From the NCBI GenBank assembly GCA_963678505.2, contig CAXXFP010000010.1:78775-102774 (forward strand): a stretch of 24,000 bases of DNA. Reading direction: 5' to 3'. The position numbers and the translations under genes were made by a program. Below the pieces are notes generated by a model. That model worked only from the letters and a program-made list of their open reading frames with translations, had not been told where the DNA came from and ran no database searches. Every line of letters starts with the position of its first letter. Position 1 is the stretch's first letter. Source of the stretch: Oscillospiraceae bacterium (GTDB lineage Bacteria > Bacillota > Clostridia > Oscillospirales > JAVBQB01). Positions 3,760-15,576 of the stretch are shown here, one piece after another.

Positions 3760-4035
3760 TATGAAAACCTGAATATTTTTTACCGCGATGAACGGAAAGA
3801 GTAGTGCGGGCGAGGCAATCAGAGAGGGCGGCCAATGTGCTGGAAGCTGCCTGTGCCGGACCGGCGTGAAGTGCGTCTGTGAGCGGGAGGGCGGGAAAAA
3901 CAGTATCGCCCTCCGTGCGGCCGCGTTAAGGCCTGTGGGCTATGGCGCGCGCAAGCCGTCCGGCCTGAAGTGATAAATTAGAGTGGAACCGCGGTTAACG
4001 CCCGCCTCTTTTGGGAGGACGGGTGTCTTTATATC
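3760..4035 (+). promoter_or_regulatory. T-box leader (tRNA-Cys-responsive) with terminator
   Basis: Stem I elements seen in order: GAUGA, AGAGUA, AGAGAG, then GAA-g-UGC-G (candidate Cys specifier UGC at 3872-3874). T-box sequence AAUUAGAGUGGAACCGCG at 3975-3993. Its UGGA matches a U73 discriminator, as in tRNA-Cys. Terminator stem 4001-4008/4015-4023 followed by UGUCUUUAU. Located upstream of cysE-cysS. Confidence 0.8.
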
Positions 4036-4187
4036 CCCCCGCGTTTGTCCTTGTTCATCGAAAGCACGATGCTGCGCGGATACGTCCGCGCCGCCGCTTT
4101 CATCCGGCGGGCCGCCCGCTTTATTCAGGCGGCATGAACACCTCGTGCGGGAAGCGTTTCCGGCATGCGGCGTGATTGGGGGATTTT

Positions 4188-4847
4188 ATGTTTAAAAGCA
4201 TTCGGGAGGACATTGATTCCATTCGGGAAAGAGATCCGGCCGCGCGTTCACGCACCGAAGTGCTGCTGCTGTATTCGGGGCTGCACGCGCTTATTTATCA
4301 CCGCATCGCAAACTGGTTTTACAGGCATAAAATGCTGTTTCTTGCGCGTTGGGTCTCGCAGTCTTCCCGGTTTTTGACCGGGATAGAGATCCATCCGGCG
4401 GTAAAAATAGGAAAAGGGCTGTTCATTGACCACGGTTCGGGCGTGGTCATCGGTGAAACGGCCGAAATCGGCGATTATGTCACGCTCTATCAGGGCGTGA
4501 CGCTGGGCGGCACGGGCAAGGAAAAGGGCAAACGGCATCCGACGATCTGCGATTATGCGATGGTTGGGTCGGGCGCGCGTGTGCTGGGACCCGTGGTCAT
4601 CGGCGCGCGCGCGAAAATCGCGGCCGGCGCGGTGGTGCTTGACGATGTGCCCGACGACGCGACCGCCGTGGGCGTGCCCGCGCGCGTGGTGCGCCTTGCA
4701 GGCAAAAAAGTCGAGTCCCAGCAGCTCGACCAGATTCATATGCCCGATCCCGTCTCGCTGGAGCTTTGTAAGCTGCAGGCGGAGTTTGACAGGCTCAAGG
4801 GCGAGCTGGACGCGTGCCGCGCCAAAAACAGTAAGACCGGGGAATGA
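4188..4847 (+). CDS. cysE: Serine O-acetyltransferase
   Basis: N-terminal SATase helices ([30 protein letters not shown]) and hexapeptide-repeat beta-helix ([24 protein letters not shown]). Start moved to ATG 4188, which has GGGGGA 5 nt upstream. Confidence 0.9.
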
Positions 4848-6924: not shown

Positions 6925-9581
6925 AACTCATGGTCATAGACGGCAACTCCATACTTAATCGCGCTTTTTATGGGGTGCGGCTGCTTTCAAACCGCGACGG
7001 TCTGTATACAAACGCTGTCTATGGCTTTTTAAGCATACTTTTTAGGCTGCTCGACGAGCGCGCGCCGGATGCGCTGTGCGTATGCTTTGATTTAAAGGCG
7101 CCCACCTTCCGGCATCTGTCCTTCGAGGGCTATAAATCGCGCCGTACAGCCATGCCTGAAGAGCTTCAGGTGCAGATGCCGGTCGTCAAAGAAGTGCTCG
7201 ATGCGATGCATATTGCACGCTTTGAGCTGGAGGGCTTTGAGGCCGACGACCTCATCGGCACCATCAGCAGACGCAGCGACAGCGCGGGCTGGGACTGTGA
7301 GATCGTAACGGGCGACCGCGACAGCCTTCAGCTGGTGAGCGACCGCGTGAAGTCTTTGCTCGTTTCCACCGTGCAGGGGCAGACACAGACGAAGGAATAT
7401 ACGCCTGCGCGCATCAAAGAGGAATACGGCCTTACCCCCGCCCAGATCATCGACCTGAAGGGGCTGATGGGCGACAAGTCCGACGACATTCCGGGCGTGG
7501 CCGGCGTGGGTGAAAAAACGGCGCTCGAGCTTGTGCGAAATTTCGGGTCTATTGAGGAGATTTATCAAAGGCTGGACACGCTGGATATACGCGAAAGCGT
7601 GCGCAATAAGCTGCGCGCGGGCAGCGAAATGGCGGCGGTCAGCCGCAGGCTGGCCACCATCGACTGCGACACGCCCATTGATTTTTCTCCGGAAAAAGCG
7701 CTTTTGCGCGAACCGGACAACGATATGCTTTATCAGCTGTTTATAAAGCTTGAGTTTAAGACGTTTATGAATAAACTTAAGCTGGGCAAGCCTCAGGACG
7801 CGCCGAAGGACGCGCCGAAGGACGCGCTGGCGTTTATTCTGCCGCCGCACAGCCCCGTTTCCGGCACGCAGGCGCTCGATAAGCTTATTGCGGCGTGCGC
7901 CGCAGAACAGGCCGTGGGTTTTGCCTGTGCGCAGAGTCTTGACGCACTGGCACTGAGCACCGCAGACATGACCTATACGGTTTGCCGTGCGGATCATGAC
8001 GAGCAGGCGTATGAGCGTTTTCTGCACGCTGTTTTCTCCGATAAAATCAAAAAGGCAGGACATGATTTGCGCCCGCTGTTTGTAAGCCTTATGGCGCAAG
8101 GGTTTTGCGTGGACGGCTTTATGTTTGACGCGGCGCTTGGGGCTTATCTGCTTAACCCATCCGAGAGCGGCTATACGATTGAAAAAACAGCGCTGCGGCT
8201 GCTGAGTTTAGAGATTCCGCCGTCGGGCGCCTACGATGCGGAAAACGCTTTTTCGCCCCTTTCCGATCGCGGCGCGGCGCTCGACGCGATCGCGGCGCAT
8301 GCCGCGGTGACGTTTGAGGAATATAAGCGCATGGCGCCTGAGCTTGAAAAGCTTGAGATGAAGGAGCTTTATTATTCTGTCGAGCTTCCGCTGTGTCAGG
8401 TGCTCGCGGACATGCAGCACACAGGCTTTAAGGTGGATAAAAGCCGTCTGACGGAGTTTCAGGACAGTCTGGGACGGCGCATGGAGGACTGCGAAAAGCG
8501 GGTCTACGCGCTCGCAGGCGGACCTTTTAACATTAACTCGACCAAACAGCTCGGGCAGCTGCTGTTTGAAACGCTGGAGCTTCCGGCGGTAAAGAAGAAT
8601 AAAACGGGGTATTCCACCGACATAGATGTGCTTGAAAAGCTCAAAAGCAGGCACCCGATTATCGAGCAAATCATAGAATACAGGCAGCTGAGCAAGCTTA
8701 AAAGCACCTATGCCGACGGGCTTTTAAAGGTGATCCGGCCCGACGGGAAGATCCATTCCTCCTTTAACATGACTGCCACGACGACGGGCAGGATATCCTC
8801 GACCGACCCAAATCTTCAGAACATCCCCATCCGGCAGGATCTGGGCAGCGAGGTGCGCCGGATGTTCATTGCAGGGCAGCCGGACTGGGTGCTCATTGAC
8901 GCGGACTATTCGCAGATCGAGCTGCGAATCCTGGCGCACATCGCAAAGGATCCCGTGATGATCCGCGCGTTTGAAAGCGGAGAGGATATCCATACGGTGA
9001 CCGCCTCGCAGGTCTTTAACGTACCCGTCGAAGAGGTTACCTCGCTGATGCGCAGGAATGCCAAGGCGGTCAATTTCGGCATTGTTTACGGCATTTCGGA
9101 ATTTTCCCTGTCTGAGGATATCGGCGTATCGCGTGCGGAGGCACGGCGGTATATGGATAATTATCTGGAAAAGTACGCAGGCGTGCGCACCTATATGAAG
9201 GAAATTGTCGAGCGCGCCAAGCGCGACGGATATGTAACCACGCTCATGGGGCGCAGACGGTACCTGCCTGAGCTTAAATCCTCAAACTACAACATTCGTT
9301 CCTTTGGAGAGCGCGTGGCGCTCAATACGCCCATTCAGGGAAGCGCTGCGGATATCATCAAGCTGGCTATGGTAAACGTATGGCACAGGCTCAAAAAAGA
9401 GGGGTTTCGTGCAAAGCTCATTTTGCAGGTGCACGATGAGCTGATTGTGGAAGCGCCGCTTGAAGAGGCGCAAGCAGCCAAGCGCCTTTTAGTGGAAGAA
9501 ATGGAATCAGCCATGCACCTGAGCGTTGCGCTGCTGGCCGACGCGTCCGACGGATACACCTGGTATGACGCGAAAAAATGA
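6921..9581 (+). CDS. polA: DNA polymerase I
   Basis: 5' nuclease N-terminus. Family A motifs DYSQIELRILAH (A), RRNAKAVNFGIVYG (B), QVHDELIVE (C). The central 3'-5' exo-like domain lacks the DxE, NxxYD and YxxxD motifs by eye, as in Bst/Taq-type enzymes. Confidence 0.95.
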   Translation: MKLMVIDGNSILNRAFYGVRLLSNRDGLYTNAVYGFLSILFRLLDERAPDALCVCFDLKAPTFRHLSFEGYKSRRTAMPEELQVQMPVVKEVLDAMHIARFELEGFEADDLIGTISRRSDSAGWDCEIVTGDRDSLQLVSDRVKSLLVSTVQGQTQTKEYTPARIKEEYGLTPAQIIDLKGLMGDKSDDIPGVAGVGEKTALELVRNFGSIEEIYQRLDTLDIRESVRNKLRAGSEMAAVSRRLATIDCDTPIDFSPEKALLREPDNDMLYQLFIKLEFKTFMNKLKLGKPQDAPKDAPKDALAFILPPHSPVSGTQALDKLIAACAAEQAVGFACAQSLDALALSTADMTYTVCRADHDEQAYERFLHAVFSDKIKKAGHDLRPLFVSLMAQGFCVDGFMFDAALGAYLLNPSESGYTIEKTALRLLSLEIPPSGAYDAENAFSPLSDRGAALDAIAAHAAVTFEEYKRMAPELEKLEMKELYYSVELPLCQVLADMQHTGFKVDKSRLTEFQDSLGRRMEDCEKRVYALAGGPFNINSTKQLGQLLFETLELPAVKKNKTGYSTDIDVLEKLKSRHPIIEQIIEYRQLSKLKSTYADGLLKVIRPDGKIHSSFNMTATTTGRISSTDPNLQNIPIRQDLGSEVRRMFIAGQPDWVLIDADYSQIELRILAHIAKDPVMIRAFESGEDIHTVTASQVFNVPVEEVTSLMRRNAKAVNFGIVYGISEFSLSEDIGVSRAEARRYMDNYLEKYAGVRTYMKEIVERAKRDGYVTTLMGRRRYLPELKSSNYNIRSFGERVALNTPIQGSAADIIKLAMVNVWHRLKKEGFRAKLILQVHDELIVEAPLEEAQAAKRLLVEEMESAMHLSVALLADASDGYTWYDAKK
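7797..7828 (+). repeat. 12-bp tandem repeat (GACGCGCCGAAG x2.7) inside the polA linker
   Basis: Direct reading. Encodes DAPKDAPKDA between the 5' nuclease and exo-like domains. Confidence 0.7.
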
Positions 9582-12375: not shown

Positions 12376-12834
12376 ATGAAGCTGATTAAAGAGTTCAGGG
12401 AGTTTATTTTTAAAGGCAATGTACTTGACCTCGCTGTGGCCGTTATCATCGGCGGCGCGTTCGGGAAAATAGTCAGCTCCATTGTCAGCGATATTTTTAT
12501 GCCGCTGATTGGTTTGCTTCTTGGCGGTATCAGCTTCGACAATCTTTTTTGGGCGGTTGACGGACACGCGTATGACTCAGCGGCCGCGGCGGCGCAGGCC
12601 GGTATTGGCGTTGTGAATATCGGTTTGTTTTTGAAGAATACGGTTGATTTTTTCATTATCGCATTGGTTATTTTCGTTTTTATCAAGATGCTTTCTCCGC
12701 TGAAGAAAAAGAAGGAAGCTTCCATAGCTCCGGTTGCACGCCTTTGCCCATACTGCAGAAAAGAAGTCGATCCCGCCGCGACCAGATGCCCGCACTGCAC
12801 GTCCTCACTGGATGCCGACGTACAGGTAAAATGA
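12376..12834 (+). CDS. mscL: Large-conductance mechanosensitive channel MscL with C-terminal CxxC...CxxC tail
   Basis: MKLIKEFREFIFKGNVLDLAVAVIIGGAFGKIVSS is the canonical MscL N-terminus and TM1. GGAGAG 7 nt upstream of ATG 12376. The longer ORF from 12211 is rejected. Confidence 0.9.
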   Translation: MKLIKEFREFIFKGNVLDLAVAVIIGGAFGKIVSSIVSDIFMPLIGLLLGGISFDNLFWAVDGHAYDSAAAAAQAGIGVVNIGLFLKNTVDFFIIALVIFVFIKMLSPLKKKKEASIAPVARLCPYCRKEVDPAATRCPHCTSSLDADVQVK

Positions 12835-12909
12835 TTACATACACGCAGCAAGCCGTTTTGGGCGTGAGAGCGCCGAGCACATTGCGGTGGCCGCGGTTTG
12901 TATAAATAC

Positions 12910-12985
12910 GCTGGTGTAGCTCAGCCGGTAGAGCAGCTGATTCGTAATCAGCAGGTCGAGTGTTCGAGTCACTTCACCAGCTCCA
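12910..12985 (+). tRNA. tRNA-Thr (anticodon CGU)
   Basis: Hand-folded cloverleaf. Acceptor GCTGGTG/CACCAGC, D arm GCTC..GAGC, anticodon stem GCTGA/TCAGC with loop TTCGTAA, T arm GAGTG-TTCGAGT-CACTT, encoded CCA. Confidence 0.9.
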
Positions 12986-12991
12986 TAATTT
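12937..12991. repeat. attL-like copy of the 55-bp direct repeat (3' part of tRNA-Thr plus 6 nt)
   Basis: Exact 55-nt identity with 14515-14569, compared by eye base by base. Confidence 0.85.
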
Positions 12992-12994
12992 TAA

Positions 12995-13027
12995 ATCCCT
13001 GTAACCACAATGGTTACAGGGATTTTT
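12995..13027 (+). terminator. Intrinsic terminator after tRNA-Thr (element-borne)
   Basis: 12-bp stem ATCCCTGTAACC/GGTTACAGGGAT, 5-nt loop, then TTTT. Confidence 0.7.
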
Positions 13028-13034
13028 GCTGCTA

Positions 13035-13442
13035 TTATACACATGGAAATAACCAGGACAAAATTGTCGGTTGGGGTTTATTCGGGGATTGCCCCCCATT
13101 AAAATAGACGAAAATACATAAAAGGTCAGACAGAATGTCCTGCCATTGCTTATATTCCAGCAGGAGCAGGAATGCCGACCGGGACAGCCGGAGGGGCCGG
13201 TTGGATGTGGAGGTCTTGGGTGTGTCCACATACACCCCTTTGCCGGGGAGGTAATTGGAGGTTTGGGAAATCATTATGGTCTGTTCCTAAAAATCCACGT
13301 CCTGCCACCGCAGCCCGGCCAGCTCACCACGGTGCAAGCCAGATAGCAAGTCAAAGGTCAGTATAACCCTCCACTTTATCGGCTCATCCCGTAGCAGCTC
13401 CAGCAAGCGCCGGGCATCCGGCTCATCGAGATAAAAGTCTGT
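13035..13442 (-). pseudogene. Tyrosine recombinase (phage integrase family) fragment, truncated at both ends with an in-frame stop
   Basis: Minus-strand translation: TDFYLDEPDARRLLELLRDEPIKWRVILTFDLLSGLHRGELAGLRWQDVDF*EQTIMISQTSNYLPGKGVYVDTPKTSTSNRPLRLSRSAFLLLLEYKQWQ... It shows the integrase hallmarks (TGLRRGEL-like box with catalytic Arg, W.DVDF, PKT..S.R.). In-frame TAG at 13287-13289, no start codon, and the HxxR and Tyr catalytic region is absent. Confidence 0.75.
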
Positions 13443-13460
13443 TCAATAAATAAGGAAGTG

Positions 13461-13489
13461 TTGCAGATTTTTACGGTTAAGCATATAAT
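13461..13489 (+). promoter_or_regulatory. Candidate promoter P1 of the island cassette
   Basis: TTGCAG (13461-13466), 17-nt spacer, TATAAT (13484-13489). Confidence 0.5.
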
Positions 13490-13549
13490 AGATAACAAGA
13501 AGAGCCTATTAAAAGATATAAAAATGTGCAGATTTGTCTATTATTTTCG

Positions 13550-13578
13550 TTGACATATTTTCATCAAAAGAGTAATAT
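13550..13578 (+). promoter_or_regulatory. Candidate promoter P2 of the island cassette
   Basis: TTGACA (13550-13555), 17-nt spacer, TAATAT (13573-13578), overlapping TATAAT at 13576-13581. Confidence 0.6.
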
Positions 13579-13584
13579 AATAGT

Positions 13585-13766
13585 ATAGGTGGGCAACATT
13601 GAGTGTCTACCCAAGCGTTGAAGTAGGAGGGCGCGCCGAAATGCGTTGGCCTATGGAGCTTTCGGGAGGGGTTTGTGTAAGAACCTCAAATCGGCTTAGG
13701 CAGAAATGCCGAAAGAAAATGCACCATAAAGGCTCTGCTTTAAAGCAGAGCCTTTATGCTATTTGT
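13585..13766 (+). ncRNA. Candidate structured RNA or leader between P2 and the 190-aa ORF (unclassified)
   Basis: Locally GC-rich segment in an AT-rich island. Hand-folded hairpins at 13590-13613, 13632-13645, 13666-13687 and 13699-13710 (GGCA-GAAA-UGCC tetraloop). Ends in terminator hairpin 13725-13758. Motif GAAA(A)UGC occurs three times. Confidence 0.4.
13725..13766 (+). terminator. Strong hairpin (15-bp perfect stem) with a weak U tail, immediately upstream of the ORF's RBS
   Basis: CATAAAGGCTCTGCT/AGCAGAGCCTTTATG with a 4-nt loop, followed by CUAUUUGU. Lies 23 nt upstream of ATG 13782. Confidence 0.6.
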
Positions 13767-13781
13767 AGGTAGAGGTAAGAA

Positions 13782-14354
13782 ATGGACAAACTAAAAGAAT
13801 GCGCAGAGGCATACGAAAAACTACTAGGTGTCGAGTACCATATTCAAGTTGGAAGAAAAGAAAAACTGTATTCCATCAATCTTTCCTTTAAAAAAGAAAA
13901 TTTTGTCCACCTTACGGGATTACATAAGTTAAAAGACCTGGGTATCCATACAATAAAAAGAGAATATGTTTTTGATGATATCATGAATGGTCAAATAACT
14001 GTTGAAGATATTATGCGCAGCTCATTCTATCCCGAAATGCAACCAAGGTTGGAACCGTTTATTCAGATTGAGAGCCTATTAGATAGCAACAATAATGTTT
14101 TCTTATACAGTGAAAAGCGTAACAATTTTTCGCTTATTAAGGCTGAATACGTTTTAAAAAATGAATTCGAAAATAATGTTGTTTATATTTTTCTTGACAA
14201 GAATGAGCGTGAACCTGGCCACTTCTGCCGGACTTTTTTCCCAAAATCAAAACAGGACTATACAATAAACCAGGCAAGATGCGCGCTATTATATAAAGAA
14301 AAAATTGACATAAATACTAACACTAAAACTATACAATTCAACAGGCTGGCATGA
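13782..14354 (+). CDS. Hypothetical protein, possible PBECR4/BECR-fold nuclease-like toxin (family assignment from memory, unverified)
   Basis: 190-aa ORF with AGAGGT 6 nt upstream. Low GC and Lys/Asn/Ile-rich composition, unlike the host genes. Motifs FVHLTGLHKLKD, CRTFFP and ALLYKEKI resemble what I recall of PBECR4-annotated Firmicutes proteins. Confidence 0.75.
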   Translation: MDKLKECAEAYEKLLGVEYHIQVGRKEKLYSINLSFKKENFVHLTGLHKLKDLGIHTIKREYVFDDIMNGQITVEDIMRSSFYPEMQPRLEPFIQIESLLDSNNNVFLYSEKRNNFSLIKAEYVLKNEFENNVVYIFLDKNEREPGHFCRTFFPKSKQDYTINQARCALLYKEKIDINTNTKTIQFNRLA

Positions 14355-14514
14355 TTAATGCCCATAAATGAGGACTGGTTCTGGGGTTTATTTGGGGTTT
14401 GTTTGGGCAAAAATGGGCAGTTGAGCGTCAGCGGCAACGAAAAATGAAAACCCGAAAAGCCGCATTATACAAGGCTTTGCTGGCATAGGCGGATATGTGA
14501 AAAACATAGTTAGC

Positions 14515-14569
14515 CTGATTCGTAATCAGCAGGTCGAGTGTTCGAGTCACTTCACCAGCTCCATAATTT
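14515..14569. repeat. attR-like copy of the 55-bp direct repeat (displaced tRNA-Thr 3' end)
   Basis: Exact identity to 12937-12991. No tRNA 5' half upstream of it, so it is not a second tRNA gene. Confidence 0.85.
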
Positions 14570-14572
14570 AAA

Positions 14573-14616
14573 AGCCTTGCAATGCCTGAAAACATAGGTG
14601 GCGCAAGGCTTTTTTC
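14573..14616 (+). terminator. Intrinsic terminator after the displaced tRNA 3' end (probably the original tRNA-Thr terminator)
   Basis: Stem AGCCTTGC/GCAAGGCT with a 22-nt loop, followed by TTTTTT. Confidence 0.6.
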
Positions 14617-14684
14617 ATTTTTTGGGCGGTATCAAGGCGGCACCTATAAAGGGGAAAAAAGCGCAAAAAACACATAAAAAGTAG

Positions 14685-14720
14685 GTGGCAAACGCGTGGC
14701 AACGTGGCAAACGCGTGGCA
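14685..14720. repeat. Four phased GTGGCA(A) repeats (GTGGCAAACGC GTGGCAAC GTGGCAAACGC GTGGCAGA)
   Basis: Direct reading. GTGGCA starts at 14685, 14696, 14704 and 14715 (spacing 11/8/11). Confidence 0.6.
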
Positions 14721-14731
14721 GATTTTCGCAG

Positions 14732-14758
14732 CAAAAAGCCCGCCTTAATCGGCGGGCT
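14732..14758 (-). terminator. Intrinsic terminator of the minus-strand HD gene
   Basis: Stem AGCCCGCC/GGCGGGCT with a 6-nt loop. On the minus strand it is followed by TTTTT. Lies 73 nt downstream of the stop at 14831. Confidence 0.65.
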
Positions 14759-14830
14759 GTCTTATTATCTCACGATATGCACATGCTGTCGCAGCGCCTG
14801 CTCGATAGCCTTTTGCCGGATGCCGATCTA

Positions 14831-15430
14831 TCAGCTTTTTGTTTTTTGAAGGAATATCTGGATATTGAGCTGCTCTTTAGCTATGTCTGCTCCCGACCGG
14901 CCTATCCTGTCGCACAGACCCAGCAGCGCGACCTCATGAACGCTTGTTTGCCTTTTCATTGACTGAATATCGGCAAAAGGCAGCGATTTATTCACAAACA
15001 GGATCTGCATATGCCATCTGACCAGCGAGGAAACCTGACGAATAAACTCAGCATCGCAGTCAAATTCGCTTAAAAACTGCGCGGACAGCTCGGCGCCAAG
15101 CTTTTCATGGTTATACGATGTTATTCTTTCTTTATGGTTTCTTGTCGTGCCGGGTTTGCCGATATCATGAAGCAGCGCAGCCCACATGAAGACCTGCACG
15201 TTTTCGCTTTGATCCTTCATCTGCGCAGCGGCGTCGAGCACAAGCAGGGTATGATTCCAGACGCTGCCCTCCGGATGATATTTCGGAGACTGCAGCGTCT
15301 GTTTTAACCGCATCAGCATCAAAAAAGGATACTCCCGGAACCAAGGCTCCTCCGCTGATCCGGTCAGGAATACGGACGGCTTGGCATCCCCCATTAAATG
15401 GCGGTTTAATTCTTCAAATAGAGCCTGCAC
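14831..15430 (-). CDS. HD-domain phosphohydrolase (similar to the HD domain of CCA-adding enzymes)
   Basis: LQSPKYHPEGSVWNHTLLVLD plus LLHDIGK are HD-superfamily metal-binding motifs. GTG start with a weak RBS, possibly coupled to the upstream small ORF. Confidence 0.8.
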   Translation of the reverse strand: MQALFEELNRHLMGDAKPSVFLTGSAEEPWFREYPFLMLMRLKQTLQSPKYHPEGSVWNHTLLVLDAAAQMKDQSENVQVFMWAALLHDIGKPGTTRNHKERITSYNHEKLGAELSAQFLSEFDCDAEFIRQVSSLVRWHMQILFVNKSLPFADIQSMKRQTSVHEVALLGLCDRIGRSGADIAKEQLNIQIFLQKTKS

Positions 15431-15432
15431 CG

Positions 15433-15576
15433 TTACTTTTTTATCTGATTGATCGTGTTTAAACCGAATTCGGCTCTCGCGCTTTCAGCCTGAGGATCAT
15501 GCTTGATATGCTTGGAATGAAATTCTCCGTCTGTTTTTTTCCCGTTTTTTGTGCTTTTTCTTCTATTTGGGCTCAT
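15433..15576 (-). CDS. Small basic His/Lys-rich hypothetical protein (47 aa)
   Basis: My own translation: MSPNRRKSTKNGKKTDGEFHSKHIKHDPQAESARAEFGLNTINQIKK. AAGGGAG 7 nt upstream of ATG. Stop is 2 nt before the HD gene's GTG. Below the ORF-track length cutoff. Confidence 0.35.
   Translation of the reverse strand: MSPNRRKSTKNGKKTDGEFHSKHIKHDPQAESARAEFGLNTINQIKK

Follow-up and report, generated by a model that had tools for sequence, protein, structure and literature searches.

A drum RNA linked to a PBECR4-family predicted nuclease in a decayed tRNA-Thr islet: a candidate type III-like toxin-antitoxin module

Introduction

The closest described relatives, in layout, of the locus reported here are the AbiF modules, in which a structured RNA precedes and restrains a toxin gene. 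In C. difficile, the RNA RCd22, a motif from the 2017 survey of Weinberg et al., is transcribed from a single SigA promoter and mostly terminated before the toxin gene (PMC12373285). It neutralises the AbiF toxin both in cis, through termination, and in trans, through direct binding (PMC12373285). The AbiF-AbiFr complex (PbAbiF-AbiFr; Zilberzwige-Tal et al. 2025, as summarised in PMC12737573) is now treated as a type III toxin-antitoxin (TA) system. Here, we analyse a 24,000-nucleotide (nt) stretch of Oscillospiraceae bacterium DNA (assembly GCA_963678505.2, contig CAXXFP010000010.1, forward-strand positions 78,775 to 102,774; the whole stretch is called the window, and its first letter is position 1), in which another motif of the 2017 survey, the drum RNA (Rfam RF02958), lies directly upstream of a gene for a PBECR4-family protein (Pfam PF18813). 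A preliminary description of the window had singled out positions 13461-14354 as a candidate non-canonical type III TA or abortive-infection cassette.

Both halves of the cassette have a separate history. In Weinberg et al. 2017 (PMC5737381), drum is described as highly conserved and as having a Rho-independent terminator behind it, it is counted among the bacterial RNAs likely to have a sophisticated function, and the motifs of its group are rated improbable riboswitches or self-cleaving ribozymes. The same paper records a "compelling association" of drum with a protein encoded nearby and leaves its function unproposed (PMC5737381). Rfam files drum under "Gene; sRNA" (small RNA, sRNA), and CaCoFold-R3D lists a new kink-turn (K-turn) in RF02958 (PMC11702757). 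The PBECR domains were predicted by Iyer et al. 2017 (PMC5512222) to be BECR-fold RNases of phages and conjugative elements, with an active-site pattern consisting of a His in the N-terminal core helix and a C-terminal Thr or Ser. Our literature search, outside whose range the 2017 supplement with its comments on drum lies, returned no functional study of drum or of PBECR4 and none linking the two.

Results

The cassette consists of one conserved sigma-70-type promoter, a compact RNA of ~185 nt comprising a 5' hairpin (P0), a pseudoknotted drum core and an intrinsic terminator, and then the PBECR4 gene. The RNA half, which the preliminary description had expected to be of a different kind from known antitoxins, is not a new kind of RNA but the catalogued drum motif: positions 13613-13729 (+), with helices P1-P4, match the covariance model over its full length (model positions 1-112/112, 88.6 bits vs a gathering score of 43, E 7.4e-16; Rfam). 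The Rfam scan of the window reported only drum and one tRNA, and the abiF motif RF03085 was absent. The protein half, a candidate toxin and predicted BECR-type RNase of 190 amino acids (aa) encoded at 13782-14354 (+), matches PBECR4 across essentially the whole profile (E 1.1e-40, 140.5 bits with a cut-off of 27, residues 3-188, profile positions 1-187/188), in agreement with the resemblance to this family that had been noted from its motifs.

The pairing of the two halves holds at every locus where it could be assessed. With an eight-sequence query alignment, we assembled a protein-led set of 80 genome loci encoding relatives 40-52% identical, in Lachnospiraceae, Oscillospiraceae, other Clostridia, Peptococcaceae, Selenomonadaceae and Treponema. 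At the Rfam gathering threshold, drum lies on the same strand and directly upstream of PBECR4 in 78/78 of the genome loci with upstream DNA, the contigs of L064 and L077 having none and being left out of the count. The same holds for 6/6 more distant homologues (31-35% identity) and for 3/3 Enterococcus/Streptococcus plasmids sampled from 20 plasmid matches (29-34% identity), which brings the combined linkage to 87/87 testable loci at 29-52% protein identity. The order of promoter, RNA, terminator and nuclease-family open reading frame (ORF) that had been read from the window is correct and is kept across the 87 loci, most of them retaining the TTGACA-17-TATAAT promoter and the terminator. The plasmid drums (L209 2352-2447, L210 2341-2437 and L211 2307-2404) are reduced forms that lack P4 and score 46-52 bits, and on plasmid pKUB3006-2 a gene for an AbiH-family protein lies directly downstream of PBECR4.

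The linkage is also seen from the side of the RNA. A protein-independent DNA pattern of drum's invariant bases, run on viral and metagenome contigs, found 122 loci, some of them on metagenome contigs that duplicate genome loci, and in 104 of the 114 that extend far enough past drum, PBECR4 follows in the same orientation (91%). When 11 exceptions without PBECR4 were re-scanned with Rfam, all 11 proved to be genuine drum RNAs. One of these exceptions, L122, has an intact drum (2778-2893) and terminator followed, ~60 nt on, by just the first PBECR4 residues (MDLLQKSAAVFERLIGYQYRF...), and is a decayed toxin gene whose RNA has been retained. Across loci, RNA and protein distances correlate (Mantel r 0.75). 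The window RNA is nearest to those of L051, L061, L066 and L067 (~85% RNA identity, 42% protein identity), and the window protein is nearest to those of L001 and L005 (52% protein identity, 70% RNA identity).

The drum fold is supported by covariation throughout. Across 59 distinct homologues, 91.6% of the cells in the drum helices are paired and 20 of the 27 pairs change on both sides; in the control, 0/500 shuffles reach any of the five measures used, and slid registers pair at only 27-44%. The window copy itself has two non-canonical pairs within P2. The P2 loop (CCGA, 13636-13639) forms a pseudoknot with TCGG at 13691-13694 (+), all four pairs of which are 100% canonical in the 59-sequence alignment, each with compensatory double changes (for example, GC in 44 sequences and AU in 15). 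Outside the Rfam model, the sequence GGTGGGCA / TGTCTACC at 13588-13611 (+) forms the 8-base-pair (bp) hairpin P0, placed between the likely transcription start and the Rfam 5' boundary of drum. In an alignment of 54 distinct sequences, 98.6% of its cells are paired and 7 of its 8 pairs change on both sides, with 0/500 shuffles matching this and slid registers reaching 23-62%; P0 is also formed in the minimum free energy (MFE) fold of the window sequence. The Rfam drum model thus seems to stop short on the 5' side. Covariation, which the preliminary description had proposed as a check on the upstream RNA, is found in the drum helices, in P0 and in the pseudoknot alike. Drum alignment columns are on average 81% identical, as against a median protein identity of 51%, and on our reading of the alignment the invariant G8/A9 and G44/A45, which flank a 3-nt bulge between P1 and P2, would fit the predicted K-turn.

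The promoter of the cassette, at 13550-13578 (+), has a -35 element TTGACA at 13550-13555, a 17-nt spacer and a -10 element TAATAT at 13573-13578. It matches the consensus at 10/12 positions and is the top-scoring promoter-like site on the + strand within 12500-15500 (promoter scan). In the 74-locus alignment, TTGACATATT...TATAAT is at least 80% conserved at a fixed distance 5' of drum, and the window site is this same conserved promoter with a slightly weaker -10; transcription of the cassette would start near 13585. The preliminary description had placed two near-consensus promoters in tandem here, and it is the 13550-13578 site that stands. The other, TTGCAG-17-TATAAT at 13461-13489 (+), matches 3/6 bases in its -35, does not pass the promoter scan and lies in a region that is not conserved in homologous loci; with this weak -35 and no counterpart elsewhere, we rejected it as the cassette promoter, and it is probably not part of the cassette unit.

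The stretch that had been called hairpin-dense, 13585-13770 (186 nt), folds at -69.4 kcal/mol with z = -3.4, and 0/200 dinucleotide shuffles are as stable. Tandem repeats, of which the preliminary description saw none, are indeed absent: the program TRF reports none within 13300-14380. We rejected as a real gene a 57-aa ORF with a TTG start that overlaps the RNA (13599-13772), because indels among the homologous RNAs are not multiples of 3; this ORF has no family match either. An antisense promoter-like site (TAGACA-16-TATACT, 10/12, 13609-13582 on the minus strand) overlaps P0 and probably just reflects the conservation of this sequence for the RNA.

The intrinsic terminator (13725-13770, +) was found by the terminator scan, which recovers the perfect 15-bp hairpin described earlier: a stem with a 4-nt loop at 13725-13758 and a GC-rich core (GGCTCTGC/GCAGAGCC), followed by a T-rich tail CTATTTGT with 5 T in 8 in the window copy. 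The 23-nt gap from the hairpin end to the PBECR4 ATG (13782), and within it a Shine-Dalgarno-like AGAGGT read from the sequence at 13771-13776 (+), 6 nt 5' of the ATG, are likewise as first described. This arrangement recurs in the homologues. Most of the 74 loci measured have 41-63 nt between the Rfam 3' end of drum and the ATG, and 66/66 distinct spacers contain a GC-rich stem-loop, a T-rich run and then a Shine-Dalgarno site. The stem sequences vary from locus to locus, and GGAG/AAGGA-type Shine-Dalgarno sites occupy the same position. In the window, the promoter scan found no + strand promoter-like site between drum and the PBECR4 ORF, and in the homologues the gap from terminator to Shine-Dalgarno site looks too short to hold one. 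Since the window has no promoter there, PBECR4 would be expressed only by read-through of the terminator.

Drum does not occur only in front of a gene. Although it occupies the 5' position of PBECR4 in 87/87 loci, about 10 orphan drum loci without PBECR4 and three gene-less units exist. Locus L049 has two gene-less complete units after PBECR4 (3775-3886 and 4155-4267), and L165 has one upstream (9036-9149, minus strand); each of these extra units stands beside a normal RNA-gene pair and has an identical TTGACA-17-TATAAT promoter, P0, drum and terminator, so that they look like RNA-only gene-dosage copies. Among the orphans, four are a 106-nt variant scoring 65-72 bits (L081 7970-8075, L082 2451-2556, L100 3917-4022 on the minus strand, and L144 1771-1876), situated at what look like prophage ends, with an integrase and an XRE-type repressor close by, and those of L081 and L082 are on IMG/VR viral contigs; these 106-nt drums could be phage-borne decoys or remnants. 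Another orphan, in L152, adjoins a gene pair that by eye resembles BrnT/BrnA.

We also looked for an expression platform. Complementarity between drum and the 5' arm of the terminator across 58 loci was 5.62 nt vs 6.12 nt for shuffled arms, and the drum fold and the terminator coexist in the MFE fold. With no excess of complementarity, we rejected an antiterminator or riboswitch expression platform. The gene-less units, the orphans and the lack of detectable antiterminator pairing speak for drum being a separate RNA product, made in excess over PBECR4, and against a purely cis-acting leader.

The PBECR4 family is large, with 1,879 representatives at 50% identity (E <=1e-3), mostly solo proteins of ~190 aa. 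The exact window protein occurs on one contig in a collection of 15 billion proteins, its nearest relatives being at most 52% identical. A Pfam scan of the protein at E up to 10 gave, besides PBECR4, one weak OB-fold match, with no ToxN-family and no Abi_2 match; NCBIfam returned nothing for it, and a tblastn search of 50,697 phage genome records found no PBECR4 match. Invariant residues of the family include H43, K49, R89, D101, K172 and K174, and the motif CR[ST]FFPK is conserved. The AlphaFold2 model is confident (pLDDT, the predicted local distance difference test, 95.4); it places H43 on a short helix and also contains a helical insert and a C-terminal sheet. H43 lies in a predicted helix at 40-45 and the conserved CR[ST]FF (R150 and T151 in the window protein) in a C-terminal strand of the model. 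The preliminary description had suggested a BECR-fold likeness for this protein; a Foldseek comparison of the model with PDB gave no significant match. A search of BFVD returned two unnamed viral homologues (TM, template modelling score, ~0.6) and otherwise weak matches to MuF or polyvalent proteins.

No third component is conserved around the pair. A partner protein or immunity gene conserved alongside the pair could be rejected, the commonest flanking ORF cluster being present in 11/74 loci, and the 123 nearest neighbours match 100 different Pfam families, none of which is found in more than 5 neighbours. The neighbours include SSB, relaxase, resolvase, integrase, YodL and polyvalent-protein domains, and individual loci adjoin AbiH, or SIR2_2 plus HerA. 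Within a few kb of drum-PBECR4, two loci contain the Rfam pemK RNA motif RF02913 (L009 727-807 and L012 4295-4394); together with the BrnT/BrnA-like pair of L152, these motifs suggest TA-rich neighbourhoods.

In the window, the drum-PBECR4 cassette is the sole intact cargo of a decayed islet inserted at a tRNA-Thr gene (anticodon CGT; 12910-12985, +; ARAGORN, and 69.2 bits with the Rfam tRNA model), the integration target. A repeat search found two 68-nt att-like direct repeats, 94% identical and spaced 1578 nt apart, which duplicate the 3' part of tRNA-Thr and bracket an islet of 1.58 kb: the left copy, at 12937-13004, covers the 3' part of the tRNA gene, and the right copy, at 14515-14582, forms the right end of the islet. 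A tyrosine-integrase fragment at 13035-13442 (-), identified by translation and Pfam PF00589, is interrupted by an in-frame stop (...LLSGLHRGELAGLRWQDVDF, stop, EQ...TPKTSTSNRPLRL...) and retains just the start of the catalytic domain (Phage_integrase positions 3-61/172, E 3.6e-5, 24.1 bits, below the cut-off of 27.1). The picture of a fossil island, its integrase decayed and its cassette intact, that the preliminary description had drawn is thereby borne out. The cassette is AT-rich, the PBECR4 ORF having a GC content of 0.32-0.35 vs 0.49-0.65 in the host flanks. Adjacency to a tRNA was rejected as a general property of the module, as it is seen in 4/60 loci only. The decayed integrase beside an intact cassette, together with the plasmid copies and the AbiH, SIR2_2/HerA and mobile-gene neighbours elsewhere, fits an addiction or defence context.

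Several smaller features accompany the islet. Inside both of its ends are TGGGGTTTATT-type direct repeats (13072-13091 and 14382-14412), the right-hand one being an 11-nt unit in 2.4 copies; the integrase may have its arm-type binding sites here. Some 100 nt beyond the right att-like repeat, the 17-nt sequence GTGGCAAACGCGTGGCA occurs twice without mismatch as a direct repeat (14685-14701 and 14704-14720), the two copies lying 2 nt apart. Between the islet and a convergent 199-aa ORF (14831-15430), a GC-rich 8-bp hairpin at 14737-14758 scores as a terminator on both strands.

Discussion

The architecture of the cassette, the linkage of its two halves and the analogy with RCd22/AbiF are what suggest a type III TA system in the broad sense. 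We give an even chance to the reading, the best supported of those considered, that the locus is a type III-like TA or abortive-infection module with an AbiF-like layout and a different RNA and toxin family. As a plausible mechanism, the strong promoter would produce transcripts most of which end at the terminator, so that drum RNA would accumulate in excess, and a minority would read through into PBECR4, a predicted metal-independent endoribonuclease. The drum RNA would bind PBECR4 directly and hold it inactive, possibly via the RNA's invariant single-stranded GAAAGAAAA segment. If transcription of the module stopped, because a phage had taken over or the plasmid or islet had been lost, drum would decay and PBECR4 would be freed to cleave cellular RNA, resulting in growth arrest. 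The termination ratio, the binding, the inhibition, the toxicity and the trigger in this scheme are what we infer from a locus in which the parts, their order, their conservation and linkage, the lack of a protein partner and the stand-alone RNA units are observed. The idea of a structured, non-repeat RNA antitoxin, put forward in the preliminary description, has experimental precedent in RCd22/AbiF (PMC12373285) and in AbiF-AbiFr (as summarised in PMC12737573).

A number of observations weigh against a TA module of this type. Across phyla, drum is far more conserved than the protein, which is unusual for an antitoxin with no more to do than match its own toxin, and conservation of this degree could reflect contact with a conserved cellular component or ligand. 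The mismatch between the clades to which the window RNA and the window protein are nearest suggests either recombination between RNA and protein or an outlier protein, and the Mantel r of 0.75 does not prove co-adaptation, as simple linkage would give the same value. The 91% linkage in the RNA-led set comes from a pattern derived from PBECR4-linked copies and is biased to that extent. On the protein side, the label "RNase" was taken from how Pfam names the family and from the profile work by Iyer et al. 2017 (PMC5512222). A Foldseek comparison of the model with PDB gave nothing significant (best E 0.04, TM <=0.23), a CDI (contact-dependent inhibition) toxin standing at rank 24 in a list that holds no significant match; a sequence search of PDB found no match, PADLOC had none for the cassette protein, and PHROGs matched it only to a family of unknown function.

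These observations bear on how drum and PBECR4 might otherwise be related. Drum could be a positive partner of the protein, as a ribonucleoprotein (RNP) scaffold, activator, sensor, specificity determinant or dedicated PBECR4 substrate, an explanation that we consider unlikely. It would account for the obligate linkage (87/87 loci) and for the extreme conservation of drum, with many invariant unpaired nucleotides, the pseudoknot and the predicted K-turn (PMC11702757). Such conservation is more typical of biochemically demanding RNAs, and it is for this that drum was picked by Weinberg et al. (PMC5737381); AbiF-type RNA-protein pairs are also reported to be ancestral to RNA-guided Cas13 (PMC12737573). 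However, a strong promoter, a terminator ahead of the gene and gene-less units all point to an excess of RNA, which is the stoichiometry of an inhibitor and not of a cofactor, and drum has no variable, spacer-like segment. What keeps an RNP or sensor alive as a rival is that the conservation of the RNA exceeds that of the protein, along with the clade mismatch in the window (85% RNA, 52% protein). In a more specific form, to which we assign a small probability, drum would supply sensing or specificity to a defence enzyme made up of RNA and protein, a new mechanistic class of RNA-controlled nuclease. Either drum would imitate an RNA target that is conserved in the cell, and PBECR4 would fire once infection led to drum being displaced or cleaved, or drum would direct the nuclease. 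Within this form, the gene-less drums at prophage ends would be phage decoys that disarm the system. The pseudo-ToxI of phage PhiTE is an analogue of such phage-borne RNA decoys.

Two further explanations rate lower still. As a purely cis-acting 5' leader, whether riboswitch-like or a protein-autoregulated attenuator of terminator read-through, and with no antitoxin role in trans, drum would be expected on the same strand, directly upstream and followed by a terminator, as it is in 87/87 loci. Its complex fold is aptamer-like, and RCd22 also works in cis by premature termination (PMC12373285). Yet the terminator stems vary while drum is nearly invariant, their complementarity does not exceed that of shuffled arms, the drum fold and the terminator form together in the MFE fold, and complete promoter-drum-terminator units and orphans exist without a downstream gene; Weinberg et al. 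moreover rate drum's group as improbable riboswitches (PMC5737381). We regard a leader of this kind as distinctly improbable. It is less probable still that drum is an independent sRNA with a role in the cell or the mobile element, accompanied by PBECR4 as, for example, a processing or protective factor. The orphan and duplicated units, the orphan copies that adjoin integrase and XRE-type genes where prophages end, and the Rfam class "Gene; sRNA" would fit such an RNA, but 91% of pattern-found drums with downstream room carry PBECR4 at a fixed spacing of 41-63 nt, PBECR4 loci without drum number 0/87, and the distances of RNA and protein are correlated (Mantel r 0.75).

Since both parts of the module already had catalogue entries, and a hint of their co-occurrence dates from 2017, the value of the present analysis lies in an explicit, testable functional link and not in a new object. 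Drum, whose role has been unassigned since 2017, is tied one-to-one to a predicted RNase, and this yields a concrete toxicity-rescue hypothesis. If the TA reading is true, RNA-antitoxin systems of type III-like character would no longer be confined to ToxN and HEPN/AbiF but would take in a third family, unrelated to these two, of predicted nucleases, and a large, pseudoknotted, single-copy RNA inhibitor would be added to those known. The family is common in gut Clostridia and is found on Enterococcus/Streptococcus plasmids, and so matters for how plasmids are maintained and phages resisted in hosts of clinical relevance; a matched RNase-inhibitor pair could also serve as a tool.

Compared with what has been described for each half, the window RNA is a full-length member of drum RF02958, with a terminator and one linked protein as in the 2017 survey (PMC5737381). 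Relative to the main text of that survey, our analysis adds the identity of the partner as Pfam PBECR4, a fixed orientation and spacing over 87 loci, a conserved promoter, P0 and support for the pseudoknot. The window protein is a full-length solo version of PBECR4 PF18813 on a mobile element, as is known for PBECR domains (PMC5512222). The PBECR domains of Iyer et al. occur mainly in polyvalent proteins of phages and conjugative elements and in MuF fusions, and an RNA partner is unmentioned there (PMC5512222). The DUF3800-associated and skipping-rope motifs, grouped with drum by Weinberg et al. 2017, are likewise structured RNAs with terminators and one associated protein family. Their RNAs and proteins are different ones, and the cassette encodes no DUF3800 protein.

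With the canonical type III systems ToxIN, CptIN, TenpIN and AbiQ/antiQ, the cassette shares the order of promoter, RNA, terminator and endoribonuclease gene, the last being predicted here, as well as a mobile-element or defence context and a pseudoknotted RNA. In contrast, the antitoxins of those systems are arrays of tandem short repeats processed by a toxin of the ToxN/AbiQ fold, and the window drum is single-copy, with no repeats (TRF) and no ToxN-family match of its protein (Pfam). We therefore rejected membership of canonical type III TA, the cassette having the gene order but neither the repeat array nor the ToxN/AbiQ toxin, and the preliminary description was right to keep it apart from them. 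The AbiF modules differ in their components, which are an Abi_2/HEPN toxin and the 36-37-nt abiF motif RF03085, and we do not count the cassette among them, as Pfam gave no Abi_2 match and the Rfam scan of the window no abiF motif. Here, a PBECR4 protein is combined with a 112-nt drum that has a pseudoknot and an extra 5' hairpin. In layout, the two are alike in every element: a promoter, a structured, non-repeat RNA from the Weinberg 2017 survey, a Rho-independent terminator and the gene of a toxin, here a candidate one, that belongs to an RNase family.

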